NCBI GenBank assembly: GCA_902472555.1 | Contig: CABROF010000013.1 | Coordinates: 1-38,505 of the forward strand | DNA length: 38,505 nucleotides | Direction of reading: 5' to 3' | Source: an uncultured Oscillospiraceae bacterium | Lineage (GTDB): Bacteria; Bacillota; Clostridia; UBA1212; UBA1255 | Part shown: piece after piece, positions 5,932-35,341 of the stretch | Layout of the letters: every line of letters begins with the position of its first letter | Position numbering within the stretch: the stretch's first letter is position 1 | Notes under the pieces: generated by a model | Database searches by the model: none | Told to the model about the DNA's origin: nothing | The model's input: the letters and a program-made list of their open reading frames with translations, nothing else | Position numbers and translations under genes: made by a program

Positions 5932-6947
5932 ATGTTTGAAAAAGTCAAACGGTTCTTTCAGAAAAAAACGCGGCATTGAAACAGCTCCGTCTTCCAAAAT
6001 AAATTCTCCATTTCCGCCTCTCTGCAGGAAAATATCCGCCTGTTCGATGAGTTATTTGCAGATGTCGATATCATGCTGTCCCGGCAGTTTGAAAATGCGC
6101 TGCAGCCTGCCATTAAATTCTGTATTTATTACAGCGATGGCGTTACCGATCCGATTCTAATCAATGAACATATCATAAAACCACTGACGCTGCTGGGTCG
6201 TCTGACACCGGTTCCCACTCTATTCGCGCAGGTCAGGGATCATGCGGTGACGACAAATGATGTAAAAGAATGCACGGATGTCACTGAAATCATATCCGGC
6301 ATCACATACGGAGACACGGTATTCTTTATAGAAGGCAGTGAAAAGGCACTTTTGTTCAGCAGCAAGAAATTTTCCCTGCGTTCCTCAACAGAGCCTGAAG
6401 GAGAACGGGTGCTCAGCGGCCCGCGGGAAGGGTTTACGGAAGGGTTTATGAATAATCTTTCCATGATCCGGCGCAGGCTGCGGACCAATGAACTGAAAAT
6501 CAGGCTGCTGACCATGGGACGTCTGACGCAGACAACAGTCTGTGTCGCCTGTATTGACAATTCGGAACAAGAATTGAATCTATTATGTCTTTTCTGTTTA
6601 TTCTTTCGGGGATCTCAAAGGTATCTGTTTCATTGACCGTCGAAACAAAGGCTGTACAAAATATATTTTTTCTGAAGGATTGCCAACCGCTCCTGCTGTC
6701 TGTAGGCTTTTTTACCGCGGCTCTTTCTGTAACCGTATTTGAGAGTATTATGCAGATGTTCACCTTTATGCTGTATTACCCCATCTATGCGTTCCCGTTT
6801 CAGACTCTCATTTCATTGGTCCTCTGGAGTGTAATTGAAATCAAAGTGCGAAAACAAAAGCGCCCTGTCACCACATGCTGGAAAAACAACACGGCCGGGG
6901 AAGGAAGCCTTACGTTGACTAAAATGCCGAAAACCACAAAAATATAA
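5932..6947 (+). pseudogene. GerA-family spore germination receptor A-subunit, disrupted by a nonsense codon, a frameshift and a deletion
   Basis: The frame starts MFEKVKRFFQKKTRH, hits an in-frame TGA at 5977-5979, and then continues in the same frame with GerA-type N-terminal signatures (SLQENIRLFDELFADVDIMLSRQFEN ... IRRRLRTNELKI ... GRLTQTTVCVACIDN). There is no alternative in-frame start between the TGA and these motifs. Reading shifts to another frame at about 6585-6640. The membrane domain is truncated, with about 1.0 kb total versus about 1.5 kb expected. Confidence 0.55.
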
Positions 6948-20609: not shown

Positions 20610-21285
20610 TTACTGCAGCTTCTCAACTACCAGCGTGTCGGGCGGAATTACATCCGTTACACGGACCGCGCTTCCCGTAGGTAATTTATCATCGCCGTAT
20701 GTAATTGCATCATATTCCCGCAGACGTTCCTGTACAATCACGCTGACCTTTCCCCTCCCGTTTCCCTGCGGCGGTACGGACAGGTAAACAGACCCCGTTG
20801 CTCCGATGGCATTTCTAATATAGATGTTTCCGTTTGACTGGATCCGCATGGAGGCCTGCATAAGCTTTGCGATGATCAGCATTGTCGCAATTCCCACCGC
20901 AAGCGCAATGCCGAGAGCCAGATAAGAATTCAGTTCCGTTTTGAGCAAAACAATCGCCGTCCACCCGCCGATTGCAAAGAAGGACAGAATTCCTCTCATA
21001 GAAAAGATCCTGAGCCCCTGTGTATCGAATCCGGTTACGCCGCCCTGATCAGGGATCCCGTCACCGTCATAAACGCCGTCAAAGCCGTCAGTGCCCCCGC
21101 TATCTGCGGAAAACCCGTCGCTGAGTTCACTGATATCGCCGAATCCGCCGGCCTCCGCATCTGCTCCGCCTCCGATACCGAACAGAGATAAAATCAACTG
21201 CAGCGCCAGGATCAGTGTAGATGTCGAAGCTAAAATGTACAGTACCTTCATGGCCGTATCAAGTTCATTCCACCAATCCATCATG
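20610..21285 (-). CDS. NfeD-family membrane protein (flotillin partner)
   Basis: I place the start at the ATGATG at 21285, with GGAGG 5 nt upstream. It has TM helices and a C-terminal OB-fold segment (GATGSVYLSVPPQGNGRGKVSVIVQ). It sits directly upstream of the flotillin gene. Confidence 0.7.
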
Positions 21286-21392
21286 CAACCTCCGTCAAAG
21301 TGAATTTTATTTACGTGCAAAGTATACACCCTGCACGCGGAAGAGTCAATACATGGACAATCCTCTTTTGAAAATATTTTCTCCCTTTTTCT

Positions 21393-21442
21393 CTTGCATT
21401 TTGTGCGTAACTATTATATACTGTAGGTGAATTTTTTTCACC
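21393..21442 (+). promoter_or_regulatory. sigma-A type promoter followed by a palindromic operator for the XRE regulator
   Basis: The -35 is TTGCAT (21393-98), the spacer is 17 nt, and the -10 is TATACT (21416-21). A perfect palindrome GGTGAAA-tttt-TTTCACC (21425-21442) lies between the -10 and the RBS. Confidence 0.45.
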
Positions 21443-21457
21443 ACGGAGTTGATTGAA

Positions 21458-22219
21458 ATGAACAGAGAGTGCAAAACGGGCCGCGGGGGACAGGAGCCGT
21501 CCCTCGGCACAAAGATCAAAGAGGCAAGAATCGCAAAGCAGCTGACACAAAGTGAACTCGTGGGAGACTTTATCACGCGGAATATGCTGAGCAAGATCGA
21601 AAATGATGCCGCAGCGCCGTCCTTGAAGACGCTGGAATATTTATCAGCGCGGCTGGATGTCCCCCTGTCCTATTTTATGTCCTCCATGGTGGCAGAGCCC
21701 GAGAAAATGCTTCCTGACTATTCGTCATATTCAAATCAGGAGATCGGCCAATTTGCAGACAGGCTGACACGCTTCATAGAAACCGGTTCCTCAGACCGAA
21801 ACGAGCTGCGCTCTATTCTGTCAGGCTTCGAGGCTGCCGCGGATGAACCCTCCGCAGAAAGCATATTCTGCGAAAAAGCGGCGCAATATTATATGGAAAG
21901 AGATATGGAGGAGGCGCTGCCCTATCTTTTATTTCTGAAAGCGCGCTGTCTCATCTCTTCCGGTAAAAATACGTGGAAAGCCGCGCTGTACGGCGGGCTG
22001 GTATATCTGTGTCAAAAGGATTATGTGTCCGCCGAGCTTCTGCTGCTGCAGGCCTCCGAGGAATGTCCGGACAAAAAAACAGCCTGTTATATTTATTCTG
22101 CTTTGGAAAAATGCAGCGTCGCGCGGGATGATTATAAATCCGCTTACCGCTACTCGCATCTGAAGCAGGCTATAGGGTATGCAAGCGCAGAAAAGGATAT
22201 CCCGAAAAGCGGCAATTGA
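21458..22219 (+). CDS. XRE-family HTH transcriptional regulator with a C-terminal helical (TPR-like) domain
   Basis: GGAG lies 9 nt upstream of the ATG at 21458. The HTH_XRE stretch is LGTKIKEARIAKQLTQSELVGDFITRNMLSKIENDAAAPSLKTLEYLSARLDV. The ORF-track TTG at 21449 abuts the RBS directly. Confidence 0.7.
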   Translation: MNRECKTGRGGQEPSLGTKIKEARIAKQLTQSELVGDFITRNMLSKIENDAAAPSLKTLEYLSARLDVPLSYFMSSMVAEPEKMLPDYSSYSNQEIGQFADRLTRFIETGSSDRNELRSILSGFEAAADEPSAESIFCEKAAQYYMERDMEEALPYLLFLKARCLISSGKNTWKAALYGGLVYLCQKDYVSAELLLLQASEECPDKKTACYIYSALEKCSVARDDYKSAYRYSHLKQAIGYASAEKDIPKSGN

Positions 22220-22225
22220 AAGAGT

Positions 22226-22930
22226 TTAAGCCCTCCAGAGTTCGCTGCTGCTGACGGAAACGCCCGATGCACCGGCATTGAGCGCATTGATCATATCATT
22301 TTTTTCTGAAATCATGCCGCCGCAGATGACGGGTACACTAAGCTGCGAGGTCAACGCGGTAATCGCCTTGGGAATCAGCGCCGGCATAACCTCTACAAAA
22401 TCCGGAGAAGAGGCTTCGATCAGCTTAACGCCGCTTTTAATAGAAGAGGAATCAATCAAAAAAATACGCTGGATCGTCAGCAGGCGGCAGGCGGCGGCAT
22501 GTTTAAGCGGTGTACTTTTTGTGCTGATAATACCAGTTATGGCCGTATGCTCCGCCATAAACCGGAGCCCCGCCGGATCTTTTCCGATTCCATCAATCAA
22601 ATCCAGATGCACAAAAACGAAGCGGCCTGCCTCTGCAAGCTTTGTAATCACGGGAATATACGCAAACAGGTCCCCCTCGACAAGAAAAACCACCTGAACA
22701 GATGTTTTCAGCACAATCTCCGCTGACTCCGGGCTGCGGACCGCCGCAATCACCGGATTTTCCTCCAACGCACCTCTTACCTTCCCGGAAACAGCCTTTA
22801 TATTCCGGTTCCTATCCGAAGAACATGCTGTCCGCCCTTTTTCCGTATGAATCCTGGTGACGGTTTGTTTTTCGTGCGCCTCAGATTCCTGCGGCTGCCT
22901 GCGCGCGCACGTTTGCTGCTTCTGATTCAC
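22226..22930 (-). CDS. glpP: glycerol-3-phosphate-responsive antiterminator GlpP family protein (with an N-terminal extension)
   Basis: The core ENPVIAAV ... VICGGMISEKNDMINALNAGASGVSVSSSELW matches the G3P-antiterminator family. The first ~45 residues are extra and low-complexity, so the true start may be internal. It is the last gene downstream of the G3P dehydrogenase genes. Confidence 0.55.
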   Translation of the reverse strand: MNQKQQTCARRQPQESEAHEKQTVTRIHTEKGRTACSSDRNRNIKAVSGKVRGALEENPVIAAVRSPESAEIVLKTSVQVVFLVEGDLFAYIPVITKLAEAGRFVFVHLDLIDGIGKDPAGLRFMAEHTAITGIISTKSTPLKHAAACRLLTIQRIFLIDSSSIKSGVKLIEASSPDFVEVMPALIPKAITALTSQLSVPVICGGMISEKNDMINALNAGASGVSVSSSELWRA

Positions 22931-23136
22931 GTACTGTCCCCCTTTATCCGGTTGTCCCTTTATCCGTTTATGCGCCCGGAGACGGAGAGGAGACTGGGAC
23001 CCGGTTGGCCGTATCGCCTGTATCGCCTGTCAGGCAGCGAAAAACGTTGTTTGGTTTATTGTATAGCAGCCCTCCGCAGAATGCAAGCGACCCCGGCCTG
23101 CCGGGGGCTGACAAGGACGCCTGCGTACAGACTGCC

Positions 23137-23556
23137 TTATGAAAAAGCAGTCTCCTCTGAGGCAAAGGCTGCGGAGGCTGCAATGACGGCGGGGCCTGTA
23201 TCTGCAATATTCCGAATCAGGACGTCGCCCGCCTTTACAGGCAGCGGAATTGTATTTTCCCTTGTGTAACGGCGGATTTCCTCCAGTACGGCAAAAATCC
23301 GCGTTTTCGGAACGGGTCTTTCGGTGCGCACCGGAAGGCGCAGACGGTCAGCGCCGGACAGCGGAATCGTTGTGGTGACGATGCGGGCAGGACGCGTCAT
23401 TTCCTCCTCTGCATAGGACTGTCCTCTTGCACAATGATTTCCGCGCACAAAAATACTGCCGTCTGCTGCCCGTACCGCCTGCAGCGCACAGCCGCGCGGA
23501 CATAAAATGCAGATATACGCACTATTATTTTCATTCATGTCCATTATGTCCATCAT
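23137..23556 (-). CDS. DUF1667-type small Cys-containing protein (third subunit of the clostridial GlpA-like dehydrogenase gene set)
   Basis: The sequence ICILCPRGCALQAV...GNHCARGQ matches the DUF1667 pattern. Several ATGs are candidate starts. Confidence 0.55.
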   Translation of the reverse strand: MMDIMDMNENNSAYICILCPRGCALQAVRAADGSIFVRGNHCARGQSYAEEEMTRPARIVTTTIPLSGADRLRLPVRTERPVPKTRIFAVLEEIRRYTRENTIPLPVKAGDVLIRNIADTGPAVIAASAAFASEETAFS

Positions 23557-24928
23557 CCCCCTTTTCCTCCTGCCGGATTTCGGCCGCTTCTATTACGATG
23601 GACCGTGCTTTCAGCACCTGTTCCGCCTGCTCCGCCGAAATGCGCAAACGGATCATCTCGCTGGGCACGGCCCGCACCAAATTCAGCGCAGCAATTACCG
23701 CGCCGTCAGCCTTCAGGCAAATCCGACACGTCTGCAGCGGCCGGATCACACGGCAGTACAGTATGAGTTCCTCTACCCGTGCAATACGCTGCGGCACAAC
23801 ATACCGCACCCCCTCCCCGACATTTACCATTATAAACTTCCCCTGAGGTAAATTTTCAAAATTCATGTTTTTTTCTTTTGTTAAAAGCGTTTTCAGGCTC
23901 TCTTTCCCGTGCGCTTCAGATAAATGTACAGGGTGCGTATTGATTGCTTCGCGTACGGTACGGGCCGCAGCTTTTCCGGCTTCGACGCTTTCTTCGCTGA
24001 CATAGTCTACGATATCATGAACATGCAGTACATTGCCGCATGCATAAATGCCGGGAACAGAGGTTTCGCGTCCTGCGGAAACCATCGGGCCGCCGGTAGC
24101 AGAATCCAGCAGAATCCCCGCGCTGCGGCTTAGTTCATTTTCCGGAATCAGGCCCACAGAGAGCAGCAGCGTATCACAAGAGACAACGGTCTCGGTTCCT
24201 TGAATCGGCACGCCCTTCTCATCTACCGAAGCAATGGTGACCCCTGTCAGATAGTCCGTCCCGTGAATATCAACCACAGTGGTCCGGAGCTTCAGGGGAA
24301 TCTCATAATCCCGCAGGCACTGCTGAATATTTCGTGCCAGACCGGCGGAATACGGCAGCAGCTCACATACCATTTTCACCTGAGCGCCCTCCCACAGCAT
24401 TCTGCGGGCCATAATCAGTCCAATATCACCGGACCCCAGCACCACAACCTCTTTTCCGGGCAGCACCCCCATCATATTCACCATTTTCTGTGCCAGCCCG
24501 GCAGTATAAATGCCTTTTGGCGGGCGCGTACCCGGAATGCGGATATTCCCCCGCGTCCGTTCCCGGCAGCCCATAGCCAGAATTACGGCTTTTGCCCGGA
24601 TCACACAAACTCCCGTATCCGGAGAAATACAATAAACCTCCTTTTGCGGCGTCACCTCCAGCGCCATGCACTGCAGCATCACCGCAATGCCGCGGGCCGC
24701 CACAGCCGCGATATCCCGCTCCGCGTACTCCGGCCCGGTAAGTTCCTCCCGGTAGCGCCGAAGGCCAAACCCATTATGAATGCATTGCTGTAAAATGCCG
24801 CCCAGGCGGCAGTCGCGCTCCAGAATCACAATCCGCCCCGCGCCTTCATCGTAGCACGCACAGGCCGCGGCCATCCCGGCAGGACCGCCTCCCACTACCA
24901 CAACATCATACTCCAAGGTTTTCATCAT
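23531..24928 (-). CDS. FAD/NAD(P)-binding pyridine-nucleotide-disulfide-type oxidoreductase (second gene of the G3P dehydrogenase set)
   Basis: There are two dinucleotide-binding motifs: YDVVVVGGGPAGMAAA and VVVLGSGDIGLIMA. It overlaps the upstream gene by 23 nt. Confidence 0.7.
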   Translation of the reverse strand: MMKTLEYDVVVVGGGPAGMAAACACYDEGAGRIVILERDCRLGGILQQCIHNGFGLRRYREELTGPEYAERDIAAVAARGIAVMLQCMALEVTPQKEVYCISPDTGVCVIRAKAVILAMGCRERTRGNIRIPGTRPPKGIYTAGLAQKMVNMMGVLPGKEVVVLGSGDIGLIMARRMLWEGAQVKMVCELLPYSAGLARNIQQCLRDYEIPLKLRTTVVDIHGTDYLTGVTIASVDEKGVPIQGTETVVSCDTLLLSVGLIPENELSRSAGILLDSATGGPMVSAGRETSVPGIYACGNVLHVHDIVDYVSEESVEAGKAAARTVREAINTHPVHLSEAHGKESLKTLLTKEKNMNFENLPQGKFIMVNVGEGVRYVVPQRIARVEELILYCRVIRPLQTCRICLKADGAVIAALNLVRAVPSEMIRLRISAEQAEQVLKARSIVIEAAEIRQEEKGDDGHNGHE

Positions 24929-26369
24929 AATCGCTCTGATTCCTCCTCTGCATATTTTCCCGGGCCCCGCCGCTGGCGTATTTCCGGATCAATTCCTCTA
25001 CATAAGGCCGGCAGAAGCCCCCCTGGCACCGTCCGAGACCGGCCCTGCATCTGCGTTTTACCCAATCCACATCAGGCTGCGCATACCGGAACAACGCTGC
25101 GGACCGAATCGCCATAAGAATCTGCCCTTCTGTCACAGTCTCGCAGCGGCAGATGATTTTTGCAAAATGCCGGTCTTCCTCCGCAAGACGGCTGCGCTGC
25201 TGCCAGTCCATTGCCGCAAAATCCGGAATGCCGCGCCTTGTCAGCACTGGGCGGCTTTTCGGCTGCAGCGGAAGCTGCGCATCGATCAAATTTGTCAGCA
25301 TCTCCGCAATCGCCGGGGCAGCAGTCAGACCGGGAGAACAGATTCCGGCAGTATACAGAAAGCCCGGCAGTACATCGGAGCCGCGGATGATAAAGTCAGA
25401 ACCCACAACGGGCCGGATTCCCGCAAAAGCAGTGATGCTGCCTCCGGACGGCAATTCCGGACAGCTTTTCCGCGCCTTTTGTAAAATGTCCGCCATTCCC
25501 GCAGCAGTCGTATTGACGGTACGTTCGGTCACCGGGTCGCTGCTCGGACCGATCAGCAGGTTTCCCTCTGCGGTAGGCGTAACCAATACCCCCTTCCCCG
25601 CCTTTGTGGGCGGCTGAAAAATGACGGAACGCACAAAATTTCCATATATTTTGTCGTATAAAATGTACTCGCCCTTCCGATAGGTCTCGGCAACAGGCTC
25701 CGCACCGGCCATGCGGTTGATTTGTCCGGCAGACAAGCCGGCGCAGTTTACAACGAGACGCGCAGTAAATAATTTCGTGCTGCAGTCCGGCTCCGTTCCC
25801 CCCGCCTCCACGGTAAACAGGCCGCCGGGTTCGCGGCAAATAGCCCGCACTTCATGAGATAGATAAATATCAGCTCCGTTTTCCGCCGCATTTTCCGCAA
25901 AAGCAACAGCCGCCTCATAGGGGGAGATCACACCGGCTTCCGGCGCATACAGCGCACCGACAGCGGATACGGCAGGCTCCATTTTCCGCAGCGCCTCCTG
26001 AGAAAGCACCTGCAGTCCCCGTACACCGTTTTGTTCGCCTCTTTCTAAAAGCACCCGGAGCGTATTCAGATCCTCCTGATCAAATGCCAGTACAAGAGAA
26101 CCGATTTTCCGGAACGGGATGCTGAGATCTTTGCACAATGCCGGATACATGGCGCAGCCCTTTACATTCAAAGCCGCCATCAGCGTGCCGGGCTGCGCAT
26201 CGTAGCCGGCATGGATGATCCCGGAATTCGCGCCGGACGTACTGCGCGCAAAATCCCGTCGCGCCTCCAGCAGGGCAATCCGTACCCGGTAAAATGACAG
26301 GGCCCGGGCAAGGGCGGTTCCCACGATGCCGCCGCCGACAATCAGAATATCATACGCTTGTTTCTCCAT
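24906..26369 (-). CDS. FAD-dependent glycerol-3-phosphate dehydrogenase-like oxidoreductase (GlpA/LhgO family) with a C-terminal Cys-rich, BFD-like domain
   Basis: I place the start at ATG 26369 (MEKQAYDILIVGGGIVGTALAR is the FAD-binding stretch), with GGAAGG upstream. The C-terminus has CRCETVTEGQI...C..GLGRCQGGFC. The ORF-track start at 26417 lies inside the leader hairpin. Confidence 0.7.
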   Translation of the reverse strand: MEKQAYDILIVGGGIVGTALARALSFYRVRIALLEARRDFARSTSGANSGIIHAGYDAQPGTLMAALNVKGCAMYPALCKDLSIPFRKIGSLVLAFDQEDLNTLRVLLERGEQNGVRGLQVLSQEALRKMEPAVSAVGALYAPEAGVISPYEAAVAFAENAAENGADIYLSHEVRAICREPGGLFTVEAGGTEPDCSTKLFTARLVVNCAGLSAGQINRMAGAEPVAETYRKGEYILYDKIYGNFVRSVIFQPPTKAGKGVLVTPTAEGNLLIGPSSDPVTERTVNTTAAGMADILQKARKSCPELPSGGSITAFAGIRPVVGSDFIIRGSDVLPGFLYTAGICSPGLTAAPAIAEMLTNLIDAQLPLQPKSRPVLTRRGIPDFAAMDWQQRSRLAEEDRHFAKIICRCETVTEGQILMAIRSAALFRYAQPDVDWVKRRCRAGLGRCQGGFCRPYVEELIRKYASGGARENMQRRNQSDYDENLGV

Positions 26370-26398
26370 AGAATCGTTTTCCTTCCTATTTTTCCGCT

Positions 26399-26446
26399 GA
26401 AAAAAAGAGAGCCGCAAAAACCCTTATCGGGTCTTCGCGGCTCTCT
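26399..26446 (-). terminator. intrinsic terminator in the 5' leader of the G3P dehydrogenase operon (a candidate GlpP-controlled attenuator)
   Basis: On the minus strand, a 10-bp perfect stem (agagagccgc / gcggctctct) with a 21-nt loop is followed by T7. It lies about 30 nt upstream of the start codon and downstream of the promoter. Confidence 0.6.
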
Positions 26447-26542
26447 CCTCTCGGCCAAACCATATAACATACACTATTCAAGATCTACCATACGCAAGGC
26501 CTCCGGTATTGTGTTCGTTCGGCAGCATATGGCTGTATTGCT

Positions 26543-26571
26543 ACTATAACACCTTTCCCTTTCAGTGTCAA
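26543..26571 (-). promoter_or_regulatory. sigma-A promoter of the G3P dehydrogenase operon
   Basis: On the minus strand, TTGACA (26571-26566) is followed by a 17-nt spacer and TATAGT (26548-26543). Confidence 0.55.
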
Positions 26572-26719
26572 CGGCAGAATGAACCGTGGCTTTAGAGGAC
26601 CGCTTTCTGGACTTTACATAAAATTGGGTATTGAACATACCACTTCATAGTAAAATGAAAAGCAGAACCCGACTTTAAAAATCGTATTCTACTTTTCCTT
26701 TATTTTTAGTGGCAATTAA

Positions 26720-28435
26720 TTATTCAGTTATTTTTCTTCTTCCTATTGCGCAAATACCCGTTATAGCAATTAAAATCATAACGTATGTAATAACTTGCTG
26801 TCCAACATCTCCTGAATCAGGATTTTTCCCCGAAGCAGTGTCTGCCGCGCTCAGCGTTCCATAGTAATCCGTTTCAGTACCTACAATGCCAATATTTATT
26901 GCAGCAGATGCTTCCGTGTTCATTTTGCCATCTTTATATAAATGTGCATATTCAGATGTACCAGCTACACCATAAATACCAACCGCATTGTCAGTCTCTG
27001 TGATATTCTCTATAAGGAGTAAATATTCACCGGCAGTAATATCATTTTCAAATGTAAAATACAAATCGTGACTATCATAGAAATCTACAAAATCCACTGT
27101 TGCAAGGACTTCACCTTTAATGGACGCAAGATATGAGCCCTGCCAAGCATACAAAGACCATCTCAAGCTACCCACGTTATCGCTCCAGCTTGGGCATTTA
27201 ATGCTGATTTTATCAAAAGGCATACCTGTAGAAAACTGAATCGCATAACTGGAGGCAATCTGCAGAGGTATAGATTCTGCTGCAGTATCATAAAAAGGAA
27301 CGCGCTGCACGATTTTCTCAACAATCTCAAATCCACCATCATCATACTTTTCAAAAAGAATTCCACCATAAAAATCAACTAAAACCTCTGTGCCTGCCAT
27401 AAAGCATTCCACATATGCAGTTTCATCCTTTGTTTTAAGCTGCATTAAATTAGCCTTATCCCACTCTGGAGAAACAACTTCAAATACAATAATATATTCT
27501 CCCGCCGGCTGTGCTGACGAAAAGCTGTAACTGCTTTCGAGCCTTTTAGATTGTTCACTGCCACTGCTTACATCAAATGTGACAGAAGTCTGTGCAGCAC
27601 CTGATGTTGAAGTTTCGTAATCTTTATTCCATTTATATAAAGACGCTTTTAATGTAACTGTATCTTCCACATAAAAGCCCAGCATTCCACCTGTAAAAGA
27701 AGATTCAGCTTTAAATCTTACTGCAAAATCATCAAAAGAATGTTTCTCGTTTTTACTATTGAAATACTCCCAGAATAGATAGTCATTTGAATGAATATCT
27801 ATTATTTCAGAGGAAAATGTAATTCTCTCATTTACCAGTGGTTTAAAGCCGCCCGCACCCACATTCTCAAACATAATACCGCCGAAGAAATCAACATCAA
27901 CTAAATTGCCGGCAACATAACAATCCACATGATTGCTCAAGTTGTTAGATTTTAACTGTATAACAGCACCCTCTGGATTATTTACTTCAAATACTGCAAC
28001 ATACTCCCCCGCCGGCTGTGCTGATGGAAAAGTATAACCAGCGTCTATACGTATATTGCCAGCCTCACCGGATACAGGCTGAAATGATGCCGTTGCCTTA
28101 GGGGCAGCGTTAACTGAAGTTGCATAATCTGTATTCCACTGGTGTAATCTTACATTTATTTGTGTCGAGTTTCCCTCCACATACAGGGCCATCATACCTC
28201 CCACAAAAGATGATCCCGCCTTGAATCGCACTGCAAAGCTTGGAAACGTTCTGTCTGAAGGCTCGCTTCCAGTAGCCATCCAAGCATCAAAATACGGCCA
28301 ATATACATCACCTTTTCCGGAAGAGAATGTTACAAGTCCGTTTTCGGCCGAAACACTCATTCCAAAGCACGAAACAGTCACAATAAAAATTAAGACTGCT
28401 ATAGCCGTTAATTTACACTTACTACTTTTGTTCAT
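26720..28435 (-). CDS. cell-surface protein: signal peptide, three tandem copies of an uncharacterised ~110-aa module, C-terminal TM anchor
   Basis: I place the start at ATG 28435, with GAGGTGG upstream. The ORF-track start is GTG 28444. The repeated module contains FAVRFKA.SSF.GGM...YVE......L..WN.DY.TS....P......AQPAGEY..VFEV. The C-terminus is VITYVMILIAITGICAIGRRKITE. Confidence 0.65.
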   Translation of the reverse strand: MNKSSKCKLTAIAVLIFIVTVSCFGMSVSAENGLVTFSSGKGDVYWPYFDAWMATGSEPSDRTFPSFAVRFKAGSSFVGGMMALYVEGNSTQINVRLHQWNTDYATSVNAAPKATASFQPVSGEAGNIRIDAGYTFPSAQPAGEYVAVFEVNNPEGAVIQLKSNNLSNHVDCYVAGNLVDVDFFGGIMFENVGAGGFKPLVNERITFSSEIIDIHSNDYLFWEYFNSKNEKHSFDDFAVRFKAESSFTGGMLGFYVEDTVTLKASLYKWNKDYETSTSGAAQTSVTFDVSSGSEQSKRLESSYSFSSAQPAGEYIIVFEVVSPEWDKANLMQLKTKDETAYVECFMAGTEVLVDFYGGILFEKYDDGGFEIVEKIVQRVPFYDTAAESIPLQIASSYAIQFSTGMPFDKISIKCPSWSDNVGSLRWSLYAWQGSYLASIKGEVLATVDFVDFYDSHDLYFTFENDITAGEYLLLIENITETDNAVGIYGVAGTSEYAHLYKDGKMNTEASAAINIGIVGTETDYYGTLSAADTASGKNPDSGDVGQQVITYVMILIAITGICAIGRRKITE

Positions 28436-28934
28436 ATAACCCACCTCTGATTATTATAATTTGGCAAAAGCCATATCGTTCTTTATTTAAAATTTTATAC
28501 ATTTACAAAAAGTGCGCCAGTCACAAAACGGGTAAGTTCATTAAATTTTACTGAATAATTCAGTCTGTAGAGTATCCGGCAAAATTGAACGCGCAAAATA
28601 CTTACGAATAAAATATGCAAGCGTATATCTCCGGGCATGAAAAAGCTGTGAATTCTTTTGTCTCCATACAAAGCGGTTTCGGGGAGCCGCCAGCACATAG
28701 CTTTTCAAAAGCAACAGCCGGGCAATGGACAAATCTGCATTTAACATGATAATGTGTATTGTCGGACAAAATAACGTGCACTAAAACAAGGGCGCCAACT
28801 TAACGCCTCTACAGCGCTATGTTCTATGAAGAATATTTCTGCAGACTACTGGCATATTCTTTGTATTAAGTCTTACTGGCCTCCCTTTTATTTATGACAG
28901 GCATTCATTGTTCTGCCTTTTCAAGAAATCCATT

Positions 28935-29984
28935 TTATAAAGACCTCCTGTTTTTTTTCCGATATTCAAGGGGGGACATACCATACGCATTACGAAAAAG
29001 TCTGTAAAAATATTCATCGGACTGATAACCTACGTTTAACGCAATATCATTTACCTGCAATTCCGTATTTTTCAGCAGCATACATGCCTTTTGCAATCTA
29101 ATTTCACGGACAAAATCAACCAGACTTTTCTGAAGTGATTTACGAAGGATTCTCCTGATACTGGATTCAGAAAGGTGAAATTCCTCTACCAAGTCATTCA
29201 TCGATATATTGGAATAATGTACTTGGATATATCGTATCATATTTTCTTGCTTTTGTATTTCATCTGAATCTATTTTAAAATAAATTTTATCCGGCTTCTG
29301 TCTGAACATCAAACAAAAAATGACTCTCATCAAATTTTCCATAATATGCGGACAGTAATCCTGTTGGCGAATTGATTCCGAAAATAAGGTATATAACAAG
29401 GTTTCCAGTTCTGTCTCACCTTCTGTATGAAAACATATTACATTGTCTAATCTGCCAAAGTAGTAATTTTGATAAAAAAAGTCAGAAAGTTCTGCCTCTT
29501 GCTGGAATACATCAAAAAATGTTTCCTGAAATGTACTTTTTCTCACTAAAATATTCAGGACAATTGAAGTATCATCAAAAACTCCCAAAGAATGATACAT
29601 ACCCGGCGCAATAATGCACATATCTCCCCTTTTCATACGTATGGGATAGCCTGCAACCATATTTTCGCAGCAACCGGATAATACATACACAATTTCAAAA
29701 AAAGTATGCGTATGACAAAATAACGGATTATATCTGCAATGTTTTCTGACTGAGACATTGTTATTCTGGGAACCCAGCATCAGCTCCGATAAACAGGTTC
29801 CATCTTTCAAATCTATCATCTCCGGAATCCATACGTTCAAGGGTTGAAAAGGATCCTTTTTAAGCCGATCAGCAATTTCATATATGATTGCTTCATTTCC
29901 CGTAGCATTATAATAGTAGTTACGATAAAACAACTCGTCATCATCAAATGGAGAATAATATTTAAGAAGATCCTCACGAGTCAT
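28935..29984 (-). CDS. AraC-family transcriptional regulator (cupin sensor domain plus AraC HTH)
   Basis: The C-terminal AraC HTH is IRRILRKSLQKSLVDFVREIRLQKACMLL...YFYRLFRNAYGMSPLEYR. The N-terminal region is cupin-like. Confidence 0.8.
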   Translation of the reverse strand: MTREDLLKYYSPFDDDELFYRNYYYNATGNEAIIYEIADRLKKDPFQPLNVWIPEMIDLKDGTCLSELMLGSQNNNVSVRKHCRYNPLFCHTHTFFEIVYVLSGCCENMVAGYPIRMKRGDMCIIAPGMYHSLGVFDDTSIVLNILVRKSTFQETFFDVFQQEAELSDFFYQNYYFGRLDNVICFHTEGETELETLLYTLFSESIRQQDYCPHIMENLMRVIFCLMFRQKPDKIYFKIDSDEIQKQENMIRYIQVHYSNISMNDLVEEFHLSESSIRRILRKSLQKSLVDFVREIRLQKACMLLKNTELQVNDIALNVGYQSDEYFYRLFRNAYGMSPLEYRKKNRRSL

Positions 29985-30048: not shown

Positions 30049-32595
30049 TTATACCTTCTTTTTCTTAGATTTACTATGGATCATAATTCCTGCGCTGCCA
30101 ATACCCGCAGCAAGGATACCGCCTCCGATAACCCAAGGCAATACTTCGTTATCTTTGTTCTCATCTCTAATGACCGACGGATTACCTGCTATAAACTGGT
30201 ATTTGTATCTGCCTCCCGGTGCTACATCACCGTGAACATAGAAATCCATTATGTCCCCTTCTGCTTGCATATGATCGGACCATTTAAAATTTAATATAAA
30301 GTCTCCGTTGCTTACTCCCAACATTACCCGCGGTATTTGAATCTGAATGCGGTTTCCAGATGCGCGGTACTGCACTTTGCCAACAGAGGTCCAATCCCAC
30401 CCGCCGTTAGAAGCCTCTAATGTAGTTATCGTATCACCTTCAGGCGTTTGGCGATTTACTACATATTGGAAGCTCTCCCAATTTTCAGTATTCGATATGC
30501 TTTCACCGTTAGCATAAACAACTTCAATAAAAAGTCTCATCCATGCAGGATCTGTGTAAGAAGTAATCGCTTCTGCTGTTTCAGCCATAAATGTTACATA
30601 TTCTTCATCATAGGCAACTTTCGCAAGCACAATATCATTACGCCCTGTTTCATCTTCATAAATCATATATTCGCCAGTCTCCGCATTTTTATATCCGCGG
30701 CAAGCTCTGTCAAATGTGTCGCCTGCGTATGACTCAAAAGCATGCGATACATTTGTCCACTGATCTTCCGCAGAATCCAAATCAATAGAAATAATGTCTG
30801 TTTGTGCGGTCACAGCATCTGTACCTTTGAATTTTCTAATATATGACACCATCTGATAATAATAATAATCCTTCATTTCTCCTGCCGACGGTTCAATATC
30901 TCGGCTTCTGTTATCAGTAAAATTATCAATAAATGCATTTGAAACGCCCCAGAAGTCTTCATATCTGCCTGCTGTCCATTCATTCCACCCGGTGATAAAT
31001 ACAAATTCCGGGTCTATTTCCAATACACGTTCCCACTCAGCAGCAAAATATGCTCCGTAGAATTTGGCATTTTCACGTGTATCATAACAATTCTCTACCG
31101 GCATATAATCTCTGGAGAAAACGGTATCAACTTGATTGCTGAAAGCAGTCAAATGCGTTTCTTTACACCAGTTATGTGAAACAGATACCGCCATCTGCTC
31201 AGGAGTTCCGTCACGATTGTAGTTCACAATTTGTGGATATGCCGCTATCCAGTTCCAAAGCTGGTAGCCTTCTTGAAAAAACTTATCTGTGTTGGCTAAT
31301 ACCAAAGGATTTCCGTCATGATCTTGAACCAGAACATGATCCTCTGACTGCGCATGATTGATTACTCTATATTGGAAAAATTCAATGATCTCCTGATCCG
31401 TAGGATCAAGGCTATATAATTCTCCCGGATAAGCCAGAATTAGTGGTTTTCCCTTCCAGTAAAACCATAAATCCTTGTATAATTCTTGTGAATATATATT
31501 TTCATACAGTGTACGAAGCTGAGTTGCTGCAGCCTTAAAATCAAACATGGGAAGCATAAAAGCAACGTGAGGGGTTTTTACTCCGTCAGCGCGGGCTTCA
31601 GCCCAGCATTTCATGAGTGCAAGTGCATCTGCCAAGAATGTTTCCTCTCCGTTTGTATTATCAAAAAACACTACATCAACCTGTGCATCTGCCAGAAGCT
31701 CTGCCTGACGGCGGAGCACCCACTCATCAGAAGTTCTATAGTAACCCCATATCGGTTCGTCCCAAAAATAAGTAGCCGCATTGCCCCATCTCAGATCATT
31801 GTAGTTATTAATTTCTATATCGTCATACCGGTCAAGAATATCAGAAACATTCATAAACCCATTATTAACATGCATTGAAGTGCTGTGCCATGTGTGAAAA
31901 AATAATCCCACATACTTACCTTCACGTTTCGTATTTGTATATGAAACCTCTACTTGACGATTTAACCCATCGGTCACAGCCCAAGTGTCTGACGATGTTA
32001 CGTATTCATTCCGATTATCAGAAATAGCCTCGAGCTTTCCCGTTTGTTCTAAATTTAAGCGTACACGTATATTCCCACCTCGCGGGGAAGTGTTAAAATA
32101 TGTTCTTGTATTTTCTAATGCCGGTGAGACAAGCTCCAGCTTAACACCATTTTTCGAGTCATCAAGAACTAACACATATTCTCCTGCAAGCAAGGCTGCG
32201 CCACCAGAATCTACGCAGGAAAGCGCAACCCAGCTATCTTCCGAAAATCCACTTAACTCTTTTGCTATTACAGGATGTGCCGTAACTGTTTTGGAAAAGT
32301 TACCATTCCATCTATAAACAGATGCTGTCATTTCCGGCACTCCTTTAGCTGCCACAGAATCAATATAGATTTCTATTGATTTTATAGCTGCCGTAACCTT
32401 AAATTGAATAGCATATTGTTGGCCGGAAAGAGATACCGCACGATCCATGCTTGATAATTCGTTATATAATGCCAATTGTTCTGAAGCAGCATATACACAT
32501 TGACCTTCTATTCCCGACAATGTTAACATGGATACGGATGACATTGTAAACATTACGCATAATATTTTACTCATATACTTTCTGATTCTGCTCAT
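30049..32595 (-). CDS. large anchored surface enzyme: signal peptide, N-terminal copy of the shared uncharacterised module, TIM-barrel glycoside-hydrolase-like core, C-terminal beta-rich region, TM anchor with KSKKKKV tail
   Basis: N-terminal signal peptide. YRWNGNFSKTV...LLAGEYVLVLDD aligns with the module in the neighbouring proteins. The core (FFHTWH..., ADAQVDVVFFDNTNGEETF, ITGWNEWTAG) resembles TIM-barrel GH-like families. The C-terminus is VIGGGILAAGIGSAGIMIHSKSKKKKV. Confidence 0.55.
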   Translation of the reverse strand: MSRIRKYMSKILCVMFTMSSVSMLTLSGIEGQCVYAASEQLALYNELSSMDRAVSLSGQQYAIQFKVTAAIKSIEIYIDSVAAKGVPEMTASVYRWNGNFSKTVTAHPVIAKELSGFSEDSWVALSCVDSGGAALLAGEYVLVLDDSKNGVKLELVSPALENTRTYFNTSPRGGNIRVRLNLEQTGKLEAISDNRNEYVTSSDTWAVTDGLNRQVEVSYTNTKREGKYVGLFFHTWHSTSMHVNNGFMNVSDILDRYDDIEINNYNDLRWGNAATYFWDEPIWGYYRTSDEWVLRRQAELLADAQVDVVFFDNTNGEETFLADALALMKCWAEARADGVKTPHVAFMLPMFDFKAAATQLRTLYENIYSQELYKDLWFYWKGKPLILAYPGELYSLDPTDQEIIEFFQYRVINHAQSEDHVLVQDHDGNPLVLANTDKFFQEGYQLWNWIAAYPQIVNYNRDGTPEQMAVSVSHNWCKETHLTAFSNQVDTVFSRDYMPVENCYDTRENAKFYGAYFAAEWERVLEIDPEFVFITGWNEWTAGRYEDFWGVSNAFIDNFTDNRSRDIEPSAGEMKDYYYYQMVSYIRKFKGTDAVTAQTDIISIDLDSAEDQWTNVSHAFESYAGDTFDRACRGYKNAETGEYMIYEDETGRNDIVLAKVAYDEEYVTFMAETAEAITSYTDPAWMRLFIEVVYANGESISNTENWESFQYVVNRQTPEGDTITTLEASNGGWDWTSVGKVQYRASGNRIQIQIPRVMLGVSNGDFILNFKWSDHMQAEGDIMDFYVHGDVAPGGRYKYQFIAGNPSVIRDENKDNEVLPWVIGGGILAAGIGSAGIMIHSKSKKKKV

Positions 32596-32632: not shown

Positions 32633-33385
32633 TTATTCTATACCCGAATCTGAGATCGGTCCATACAGGTTGGCAGGCGTTTTACTGTAGAAAACAGTTG
32701 TAACAATCGAAACGCCTTCCCATATTTCTTCATCCAGATAAGCTCTTGTATATTCAAAATCTTTTTCCAAGTAATATACGCCTGAATTGTGCAATGCTTT
32801 TGCGGATCGATAATATGCAAGCAAAACATATTCACCTGCCGGTAATTCTACACCGTCTTCAAATACAACCTTCGCACACGCTCCATCTTTCCAGCCTTCA
32901 GTAGAAACCTCTACAACTGGATCTCCCCAAACAGTGTTAAAATAATCTTCTTTCCATTCATATATAAAATAGTCAACAGAGTATCCATCAGTTTTTGTCC
33001 ATGTAGGGGAATGGAAGCCAATACCGTAAAACGGCGCAGTTGCACAAAATTGTAACGCAATTTCAAGTCCGGTACCGCACTGCGCTTTTAGTATAGACAG
33101 ATCAACTTCAGAATTAAAAGGAACCTCAATCCCTTCTTCAGAGATTATACCACCTGAGTAATCCGGCCTTTCTGTCGGAGTAGGTGTGGCTGTAGGTTCG
33201 ATGGTTGCCGTCGCTTCAGCAGTTGCAGGTAATGGACTTGAACCCACCCCGCCGGTAGGCTGAGTTGACGCTGTTGCGAATGATCCTGTCGGGGTCGTGA
33301 CCTTATCATTATCTGACTGACAACCTGACAGCAAAAAACAACCTGTCATAATGAGTGTTAAAAGTATTGCCGTAAACTTCTTCAT
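32633..33385 (-). CDS. lipoprotein with a Thr/Pro-rich linker and one copy of the shared uncharacterised module
   Basis: I place the start at ATG 33385, with AAGGAG 7 nt upstream. The sequence MKKFTAILLTLIMTGCFLLSGC has a lipobox. The module appears as IYEWKEDYFNTV...LPAGEYVLLAYY. Confidence 0.65.
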   Translation of the reverse strand: MKKFTAILLTLIMTGCFLLSGCQSDNDKVTTPTGSFATASTQPTGGVGSSPLPATAEATATIEPTATPTPTERPDYSGGIISEEGIEVPFNSEVDLSILKAQCGTGLEIALQFCATAPFYGIGFHSPTWTKTDGYSVDYFIYEWKEDYFNTVWGDPVVEVSTEGWKDGACAKVVFEDGVELPAGEYVLLAYYRSAKALHNSGVYYLEKDFEYTRAYLDEEIWEGVSIVTTVFYSKTPANLYGPISDSGIE

Positions 33386-33582
33386 TATAAACTCCTTTCT
33401 CTGCTCGCCCAAAAATAAATTTTTGACAAGGCTTCATTTAATTAATTCACTTATATTTTATCAATATAAATTTTAAAAAAAATAAATATTTCACTCAAAA
33501 AGTATAGATACCTACTGAACTTTTCAGTCAGCATTGGTGCCACTTTAACTATTACCTTTCAGGAATTCTACTTTCCTTTATG

Positions 33583-34232: not shown

Positions 34233-35341
34233 TTGAAGCTTTTAAAGCTGGTATTTATAAACTTCAAACAAAGTTTTACTTCTTTTCATTCTATATTGAT
34301 TATATTTATGATCGAAAGTATCATTTCAGGAGTTTCATTTATTTTTTGTACGGAAATATTATGCCGTATATGAATCAAGATTACAGCAGCTATTTTTCTT
34401 ATAAAACCTGCGCCGTAATGTTAACGCCAAAGCACCGCAGCTTTGATGCGTCCTATATTGAAAAAATCTATCATTCTGTGTCCGCATACCCTATTTGTGA
34501 TATTGTTTTTATTTCTGATCAGACCTGTACATATACAGCAGCGGATTTCAGTATGAATTTGCAGCTTTGCGGGACGTATACAAACAGAATCGATACACAC
34601 ACATACAAGATATCGGGCCGGCAGTACTTCAGAGACAAAGAAATCATGAATAAAGAGAAAGTTGCCTACATCCCCTGCGTATATATGCAGGAAATGTCTG
34701 AAAGCGTGCAGTACAAAAACGAAAATTTATCCGTAGTCGGCGTTTATTCAAGTGAAAGTTCATCCTACTGCTATATTCCTACGCCTTTATTGATTGAACT
34801 TTCTCCTGAAATTCTGCAAATAAATTTTATATTTGAGGATCCGCTGTCCGCGCAGGAGTTTCGTCAGTTCACATCAGATTTTTCTCAAATAGAGGATATT
34901 TCATATATCGAGATGGTAAACTCAGAAAAAAGAGAAATAAATTTACAGTATTCTATAATTGAAATCGTGCTGCTGGGCATACTCTTTTGTATTTCTATGG
35001 TCTCGTTTATCTATTTTATGAAATATATTGATGATAAAAATCGCTATATTTCTGTAATATACATGTTATCCGGCGCCGCAAAAGAACGAATTGCCGAAAT
35101 TTTATTATTGCAAAAGCTATTTACCATTTTATTGATCAGCGGGGCAAGTATTATGATACATGCAATTCTGCAGAAAGCAGTTTTTGCAAAAATCAACTTT
35201 TTATCAAATATTTATTACTCGGCCCTCGACTATATGATTATTTTTCTTTTTATGATACTGCTGTCCGTATTTACTATGCTTCCGCAGCTTATTTCATTCA
35301 TGCGAAGGCCGATCAATACAAGTAAAACGCGTAGCTGCTAA
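34233..35341 (+). pseudogene. FtsX-family ABC transporter permease, frameshifted
   Basis: There is a TTG start with GGGAGGG upstream. The N-terminal TM1 (MKLLKLVFINFKQSFTSFHSILIIFMIESIISGVSFIF) stops at 34371-73. The rest of the protein continues in another frame from 34346, and the frame break is at a T-run around 34341-34347. Confidence 0.55.

Follow-up and report, generated by a model that had tools for sequence, protein, structure and literature searches.

A 38.5-kb stretch of DNA from an uncultured Oscillospiraceae bacterium (contig CABROF010000013.1, positions 1 to 38,505; here called the window) carries an operon in which a promoter and a structured untranslated leader precede three genes for a predicted glycerol-3-phosphate (G3P) dehydrogenase, and in which the last gene is glpP, encoding an antiterminator of the GlpP family. 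An earlier interpretation of this DNA, made from the letters alone (the sequence-only reading), had proposed that the leader is an attenuator relieved by GlpP. We examined this proposal by folding, profile searches and comparison with loci retrieved from other genomes and metagenomes, which are labelled by L-numbers. All features of the operon lie on the minus strand and are listed in the order of transcription.

26543..26571 (-), sigma-A-type promoter: -35 TTGACA at 26571-26566, a 17-nt spacer ending in TG-n, and -10 TATAGT at 26548-26543
26370..26536 (-), untranslated leader of about 167 nt, from an assumed start about 7 nt past the -10 to the ATG at 26369
26487..26533 (-), 5'-proximal leader hairpin, from the fold; its sequence is not conserved, and the related locus L001 has another small hairpin there
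26438..26457 (-), putative GlpP-binding antiterminator element: helix P1, UGGC 26457-26454 with GCCG 26441-26438; box 1 GAGA 26452-26449; GGA; box 2 GAGAG 26445-26441
26400..26445 (-), intrinsic terminator: 17-bp stem, 26445-26429 with 26423-26407; loop GAUAA 26428-26424; U7 26406-26400
24906..26369 (-), predicted G3P dehydrogenase catalytic subunit, GlpTk type: PF01266 DAO 3e-68 and PF04324 Fer2_BFD 8e-10; Shine-Dalgarno sequence (SD) AGGAAGG at 26387-26381
23531..24928 (-), NOX-like FAD/NAD(P) oxidoreductase: PF07992 Pyr_redox_2 1e-27; overlaps the gene upstream by 23 nt
23137..23556 (-), DUF1667 ('MOX') small Cys-rich subunit: PF07892 1e-23; overlaps the gene upstream by 26 nt
22931..23136 (-), DUF1667-glpP spacer of 206 nt: tandem repeats CAGGCGATA (twice) and CGGATAAAGGG (twice); weak promoter-like TTGCAT-17-TACAAT
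22226..22930 (-), glpP, 234 aa: GTG start at 22930; SD AAAGGGGGA at 22945-22937; residues 1-50 (22930-22781) form a lineage-specific basic extension

The promoter named in the sequence-only reading was recovered by a promoter scan as the top promoter-like site within 21000-29000, where TTGACA-17-TATAGT at 26571..26543 (-) agrees with the consensus at 11/12 positions and has a TG preceding the -10. Its hexamers are identical in the window, in L001 and in L004, a strain variant 98-99% identical to the window (L004:80-301 aligned with window 26366-26580), and the spacer between the hexamers varies. The leader, put at about 165 nt before and measured here at about 167 nt from the assumed start, folds with a minimum free energy of -67.3 kcal/mol compared to -42.7 +/- 4.2 kcal/mol for shuffled sequences (z = -5.9; 0/200 shuffles as good). 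Two structures dominate this fold: the 5'-proximal hairpin at 26533-26487, for which stabilisation of the mRNA is a possible role, and the long terminator hairpin ahead of the first gene. Folded alone, the terminator hairpin has a free energy of -32.4 kcal/mol (-29.5 was also computed), and its T-tract is followed after 12 nt by the SD AGGAAGG (26387-26381) and after 30 nt by the ATG. The T7 described earlier is thus in place, but the stem has 17 bp rather than 10 bp, and the distance of about 30 nt that had been given to the ribosome-binding site is the distance to the start codon. A simple consensus terminator scan did not list the hairpin, which was assigned by folding for that reason; the miss possibly reflects the purine-rich 5' flank, which can also pair with the T-tract. 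L001 keeps the terminator with substitutions that preserve pairing, including a C-G to U-A change. In L004 the U-tract is interrupted (CTCTTTTTTT to CTCTCTTTTT), which could mean weaker termination in that strain. A known riboswitch or leader family was rejected because the leader has no Rfam match at the gathering thresholds or at E<=10, where only chance-level miRNA and snoRNA matches appeared; the corresponding leaders of seven related loci had no Rfam family either. Inspection of the promoter and leader by eye, not backed by a formal scan, showed no CcpA cre site.

The foot of the terminator coincides with an element that is also found in the glpD leader of Bacillus subtilis. The window leader reads UGGC C GAGA GGA GAGAG CCG CGAAGACCC, with GAGAGCCGCG as the start of the terminator 5' arm, and the glpD 5' untranslated region (5'UTR) reads GGUC CU GAGA UGAG GAGA GACC ACAGCACC, with GAGACCACAG as the start of the terminator 5' arm (PMC9604022, Table S4). 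In both leaders two GAGA boxes stand in a loop closed by the 4-bp helix P1, and the P1 3' strand together with box 2 is the terminator foot, which in the window makes up the lower 8 nt of the 5' arm. The two versions differ in the spacer between the boxes and in the helix (4 nt and GGUC/GACC in B. subtilis glpD, 3 nt and GGC/GCC in the window). The glpD 5'UTR imposes GlpP- and glycerol-dependent control when it is placed behind unrelated promoters (PMC9604022), and its arrangement matches the window, in line with the earlier suggestion that a GlpP-binding element conserved with Bacillus glp leaders might lie here. P1 alone has a free energy of -1.9 kcal/mol versus -32.4 kcal/mol for the terminator, so the RNA by itself would be expected to terminate, and a protein would be needed to favour P1.

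A definition of the element, consisting of a GAGA-N2-5-GAG loop on a short helix whose 3' strand opens the terminator 5' arm, was drawn from the glpD 5'UTR and about 75 leaders adjacent to glpP. The strict descriptor built on it (two boxes, P1 and an overlapping hairpin with a T-run) was scanned against the window, L001 and 80 genomic glpP loci (82 sequence sets, 2.35 Mb); these glpP loci were retrieved with a 7-sequence GlpP alignment, a 14-sequence alignment being too diverse for pattern scanning. The descriptor gave 75 matches, compared to 10 in the reversed and 9 in the dinucleotide-shuffled sequences, and exactly one match in the window, located in the leader. Matches precede glpD, glpF-glpK, GlpA-like trios, ugp-type transporters and HAD phosphatases. 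Among the leaders P1 takes forms as different as GGGU/ACCC, GGUC/GACC, UAGGC/GCCUA, CAAGGA/UCCUUG, UACC/GGUA and UGUG/CACA. Aligned with the guidance of a model, 44 distinct sequences had 93% of their P1 cells paired and showed 27 double-sided changes versus 6.4 +/- 1.9 after shuffling (0/500), with all slid controls lower; a partner-shuffle test that allowed the same flexible geometry gave P1 pairing of 72% versus 50 +/- 3%.

The association of the element with glpP was examined in 80 metagenomic loci retrieved by their GlpA-like protein, and hence chosen independently of glpP. An element lies no more than 350 nt upstream of the GlpA-like gene in 14/16 loci with glpP versus 20/60 without glpP in the retrieved stretch (Fisher p = 1e-4), and in the two exceptions among the 16 glpP-bearing loci it lies farther upstream, before glpP-glpK or glpF. 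L001, whose four proteins are 56-75% identical to those of the window, has retained both promoter hexamers, the terminator and the element, there reading UGGC-GAGA-UAUA-GAGAG-CCG, in a leader that is otherwise about 60 nt shorter than that of the window. The sole change within the element in L004 falls in the spacer between the boxes (GGA to AGA).

Elements of this type were seen in many other places. Two stand in tandem between glpP and the GlpA-like gene of one locus (L093:5766-5799 and L093:5858-5891), with one terminator hairpin each, and further ones lie at L033:3371-3405, L033:5273-5309, L061:9384-9418, L029:1024-1058, L027:7881-7915(-), L073:14966-15000(-) and about 70 other positions. 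In Bacillaceae and Paenibacillaceae loci the element also stands before genes for ugp-type ABC transporters, HAD phosphatases, a family of membrane proteins of about 220 aa and a family of secreted proteins of about 1000 aa. This spread of elements suggests that the GlpP regulon is wider than glpD and glpFK, and for the Bacillaceae loci examined, ugp-type transporters, HAD phosphatases and large secreted proteins seem to be part of it. No published description of a GlpP RNA motif was found in the literature searched, which did not cover the primary papers of 1991-1998; a study of Thermotoga regulons states that comparative genomics had not yet been applied to the GlpP regulon (PMC3750489).

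The last gene of the operon matches the G3P antiterminator profile over its whole length (PF04309 G3P_antiterm, E 1e-57, 194.7 bits against a cut-off of 27, profile positions 1-173/173, residues 60-232), and its product is related to solved structures of the GlpP family (3kts, E 3e-28; 1vkf, E 2e-12). The lack of a profile match, which would have spoken against the sequence-only reading, is thus not seen. An AlphaFold model predicts with confidence a barrel-type core of alternating strands and helices (pLDDT above 90), preceded by residues 1-36 at a pLDDT of about 50 and by a long helix at 37-57. The best GlpP matches among the GTDB representatives are Clostridia metagenome-assembled genomes (MAGs) at about 48% identity; no close relative of the organism was found among these representatives, and a scan with the GlpA-like protein gave no confirmed relative.

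The N-terminal extension of about 45 aa, which the sequence-only reading had called atypical, was borne out by alignment: of 104 GlpP homologues, most have 186-196 aa, align with no more than the last ~76% of the query and begin about 10 residues ahead of the PVIAAVR motif. The only standard in-frame starts are GTG 22930, with the good SD AAAGGGGGA six nt upstream, and TTG 22768. TTG 22768 was rejected as the true start; it would delete a conserved N-terminal helix (xxFLxxLxxxP), and the residues upstream of it are conserved with synonymous changes in L001. The GlpP of L001 is likewise extended, its ATG is preceded by GGAGGA, and the two extensions share R-I-x-T-E-K-x-R with four synonymous third-position differences. 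Synonymous differences at shared residues indicate that the extension is translated, and an extension of about 45-50 aa looks real. It is partly conserved in L001, the closest relative, and is mostly predicted to be disordered, and the first 50 residues have an isoelectric point of 10.2 compared to 5.9 for the core; that it aids RNA binding is speculation.

We then considered how glpP would be transcribed. No intrinsic terminator was seen between the DUF1667 gene and glpP by scan, by eye or by folding, and the promoter scan called no promoter on the minus strand of this spacer, so read-through transcripts should include glpP. A second GlpP element was not seen in the spacer by eye, and the descriptor scan of the window gave no second match; the spacer also holds a GC-rich hairpin, CCCCGG-CAGG-CCGGGG. 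The full order of element, enzyme trio and glpP is present in L001, L022, L057, L149, L155 and L159, and L024 has the same gene order with its 5' end cut off. In addition, glpP is the last gene of a glpD-glpF-glpK-glpP cluster in L033 (Caldalkalibacillus) and follows glpK in L083 (Thermotogae), so that glpP-last is a common arrangement. The position of glpP after the DUF1667 gene in at least six other lineages makes positive feedback plausible. At its 3' end glpP faces a convergent XRE-family helix-turn-helix gene (21449-22219 (+), 256 aa, HTH_3), a pairing kept in all strain variants L004-L009. The stop codons of the two genes are 6 nt apart and no terminator was seen between them, so their transcripts may collide or overlap.

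The three enzyme genes were assigned to a type other than the canonical anaerobic dehydrogenase. The first enzyme had been described as a GlpA-like FAD dehydrogenase with a Cys-rich C-terminus, and it does combine, by Pfam, an FAD-binding DAO fold with a C-terminal BFD-like [2Fe-2S] domain, but it falls below the cut-off of every NCBIfam equivalog and is of the GlpTk type rather than a canonical GlpA. Canonical GlpABC was rejected (TIGR03377, 121 bits versus a cut-off of 553; NF008313, 113 versus 425), the genes downstream not being glpB or glpC. A type 2 G3P oxidase of the Mycoplasma GlpO kind is the best NCBIfam match (NF033460) and was also rejected, at 283 bits against a cut-off of 460; GlpO has neither the BFD domain nor the partner subunits. 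Among solved structures, that of Mycoplasma GlpO (4x9m, 3e-53) is the closest. The FAD/NAD oxidoreductase and the DUF1667 protein named in the sequence-only reading were both found, at 24928..23531 and 23556..23137, and the nearest solved structures to the NOX-like subunit are thioredoxin reductases. By gene order and domains the three genes match the GlpTk-NOX-MOX type of G3P dehydrogenase, and their order is conserved in about 90 retrieved loci. Published accounts of this type cover Thermococcus kodakarensis, Thermotoga maritima and Clostridium perfringens; in vitro, the three proteins of Thermococcus assemble into a complex, and in Giardia and Entamoeba the three are fused into a single protein (PMC11962113; bioRxiv 10.1101/2024.02.29.582781). 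The window likewise encodes a DAO-fold G3P dehydrogenase with a Cys-containing BFD-like C-terminus, then NOX, then DUF1667, a likeness of gene order and domains. The neighbour of its cluster is glpP, with neither glpK nor a transporter linked to it.

In Pseudoclostridium thermosuccinogenes the same oxidoreductase trio (CDQ83_RS11600-11610) adjoins a G3P-responsive antiterminator (PMC7282089). The same three genes stand by glpP there, in the window and in many metagenomic and MAG loci, but P. thermosuccinogenes has glpP upstream and glpK downstream, whereas in the window glpP lies downstream and there is no kinase or facilitator nearby. The earlier statement that no glpF or glpK is adjacent extends to the whole window, from which glpK, glpF and glpD are absent (tblastn E > 0.9; Pfam scans).

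We consider it likely, from these comparisons, that the operon is G3P-inducible and is controlled by GlpP through protein-mediated antitermination, with glpP amplifying itself as the last gene. Transcription would start at the strong sigma-A promoter and by default would stop at the 17-bp terminator and U7, 30 nt before the first start codon. G3P-bound GlpP would bind the nascent leader stem-loop, in which UGGC/GCCG closes GAGA-GGA-GAGAG, and would thereby occupy the lowest 8 nt of the terminator 5' arm, so that the stem could not close beside the U-tract. The residual 9-bp upper hairpin (-11.3 kcal/mol) would end 8-9 nt before the U-tract and RNA polymerase would read through; for intrinsic terminators in general, a hairpin that ends 8-9 nt short of the U-tract should abolish termination. 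Read-through would give the GlpTk-NOX-DUF1667 flavoprotein complex, predicted to oxidise G3P to dihydroxyacetone phosphate, and would also express glpP, such that basal GlpP meeting G3P would boost its own synthesis in a positive feedback. As the element co-occurs with glpP, matches the glpD leader and covaries in its helix, GlpP-dependent antitermination of this leader, the core of the sequence-only reading, is well supported by comparison. The feed-forward autoregulation claimed in that reading is plausible, with glpP downstream of the terminator and no other terminator seen between them; the loop as claimed also requires that glpP is not transcribed from a separate promoter, for which the spacer contains a weak candidate.

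That candidate is the basis of a variant, unlikely though to be taken seriously, in which the attenuator works as proposed but a weak promoter in the 206-nt spacer supplies GlpP constitutively, so that feedback would not be obligatory and induction would bring only a boost. The spacer is unusually long, given that the corresponding one measures 37-58 nt in L001, L022, L024 and L057, and its TTGCAT-17-TACAAT agrees with the consensus at 8/12 positions. In L149 and L155, with spacers of 90-170 nt, a -10-like TATAAT is present, accompanied in L155 by a hairpin, and B. subtilis glpP is listed as a separate operon (PMC10573289). The candidate is nevertheless below the threshold of the promoter scan, with a -35 that agrees at only 3/6 positions, and with no intrinsic terminator seen before glpP, operon read-through would reach the gene anyway; in L001 the spacer is only 47 nt, and glpP must therefore be co-transcribed there. 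With a possible weak promoter in its spacer, the window may do without an obligatory feedback loop.

It is also conceivable that the leader is a conditional terminator under other control, such as a small-molecule riboswitch or another RNA-binding protein, and that GlpP acts elsewhere in the genome. In favour of this, the binding of GlpP to the leader is a prediction, the element occurs in 20/60 GlpA-like loci without glpP in the retrieved stretch, and models trained on Bacillaceae score the window element poorly. We judge this quite improbable: no Rfam family appears even at E up to 10, the short region from the 5' hairpin to the terminator lacks a conserved complex fold, the ~60 nt shorter leader of L001 retains only the GAGA element and the terminator, and the element matches the GlpP-controlled glpD leader and co-occurs with glpP, while loci without glpP within 6 kb may carry the gene elsewhere. 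Least of all do we expect that the hairpin is a mere terminator of the upstream gene (26720..28444) or an insulator, with the promoter a chance match and no attenuation. The start site is assumed and no clear terminator directly follows the upstream gene, but the hairpin lies about 275 nt past the upstream stop codon and downstream of a promoter that agrees at 11/12 positions. In L001, moreover, the upstream gene encodes an unrelated methyltransferase, yet promoter, element and hairpin are kept before the GlpA-like gene, and many loci have the element ahead of glpD or glpF, or in the interval from glpP to the GlpA-like gene.

Several observations weigh against control of the operon by GlpP antitermination with feedback. 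The support for the mechanism is comparative, and the strict descriptor matched only 42/82 sequence sets. Two covariance models (R1 and R2), whose training leaders from Bacillaceae and Paenibacillaceae were taken with their flanks and were mostly of a single Bacillaceae type, did not list the window element among their matches at E<=10 and gave it a score of 5.6 bits; the element is a divergent sub-type with a 3-nt spacer, a GGC/GCC helix and other flanks. In favour of GlpP control, a third model (R3), built from 14 leaders with trimmed flanks and with the window and L001 excluded, has the leader element at 26435-26460 as its top match in the whole window, with 16.3 bits and E~0.02, a modest and only roughly calibrated value, and its seed leaders were first found by a pattern that the window also satisfies. 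With default filters R3 gave only 14 matches (7 at E below 0.1) in 0.88 Mb; the GAGA element is so short that it is at the detection limit of covariance models. The possible weak promoter in the 206-nt spacer counts against the feedback, and the window has no glpK, glpF, glpT or ugp gene. The term 'self-contained', used for the operon in the sequence-only reading, applies only to its regulation, given that no source of G3P is encoded in the window.

The operon belongs to the known GlpP-antitermination system. The leaders of B. subtilis glpD, glpFK and glpTQ share with the window the same PF04309 regulator, a sigma-A promoter and a leader with a long hairpin and U-tract before the first gene; the glpD leader has the same GAGA-N3-4-GAGA(G) loop and 4-bp helix whose 3' strand opens the terminator arm, and the regulated function is likewise G3P oxidation. 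The target enzyme is the aerobic GlpD in B. subtilis and the GlpTk-NOX-DUF1667 complex here, and glpP forms its own operon there (PMC10573289) but is the last gene of the regulated operon in the window. Its exceptional points are the place of the regulator gene within its own apparent target operon and the lineage-specific basic tail of GlpP, an extension of about 45-50 aa that sets it apart from the B. subtilis system. Antiterminators encoded downstream of their own target terminator are familiar from E. coli bglG (bglGFB) and B. subtilis sacY (sacXY). The logic is the same, a positive autoregulation that needs basal read-through, and the RNA target overlaps the terminator 5' arm as the ribonucleic antiterminator (RAT) element does, but the protein family (CAT/PRD versus the GlpP barrel fold), the signal (phosphorylation by the phosphotransferase system versus G3P binding) and the RNA element are unrelated.

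An operon of an uncultured spore-forming member of the Bacillota thereby gains a regulatory logic and a likely inducer, G3P, and its enzyme annotation is corrected to the GlpTk-NOX-DUF1667 type. The comparison also yields a concrete candidate RNA target for GlpP, two GAGA boxes with a covarying closing helix over the terminator foot, for which there is no Rfam family. Such a motif would let GlpP regulons be predicted from sequence and could be of use where the glpD leader serves as a portable glycerol switch. We further conjecture, although we hold it to be less likely than not, that the GAGA-loop element (a 3-6-bp helix with GAGA-N2-5-GAG at the terminator foot) may be a general, uncatalogued recognition element of GlpP across Bacillales, Clostridia and Thermotogae, used here in a positive-feedback switch with glpP last, and that the basic, disordered GlpP tail may help to hold the RNA.

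The neighbouring genes of the window include a V-type ATPase operon, flotillin and NfeD-like genes, Spo0A, glycosidases and regulators, and by these neighbours the organism is a spore-forming member of the Bacillota. The gene upstream of the operon (26720-28444 (-)) encodes a protein of 574 aa whose N-terminus resembles a signal peptide and whose C-terminus carries a hydrophobic anchor; three internal repeats each contain ...AGEY..VFEV..., and the protein has no Pfam or NCBIfam match. Three further open reading frames (ORFs) without a Pfam match, of 848 aa (30049-32595 (-)), 259 aa (32633-33412 (-)) and 331 aa (34346-35341 (+)), sit between an AraC-family regulator and a GH78 rhamnosidase. An ORF of 187 aa at 6073-6636 (+) aligns with the profile of GerA germination proteins over no more than positions 16-177 of its 466 and may be a gene fragment or pseudogene.

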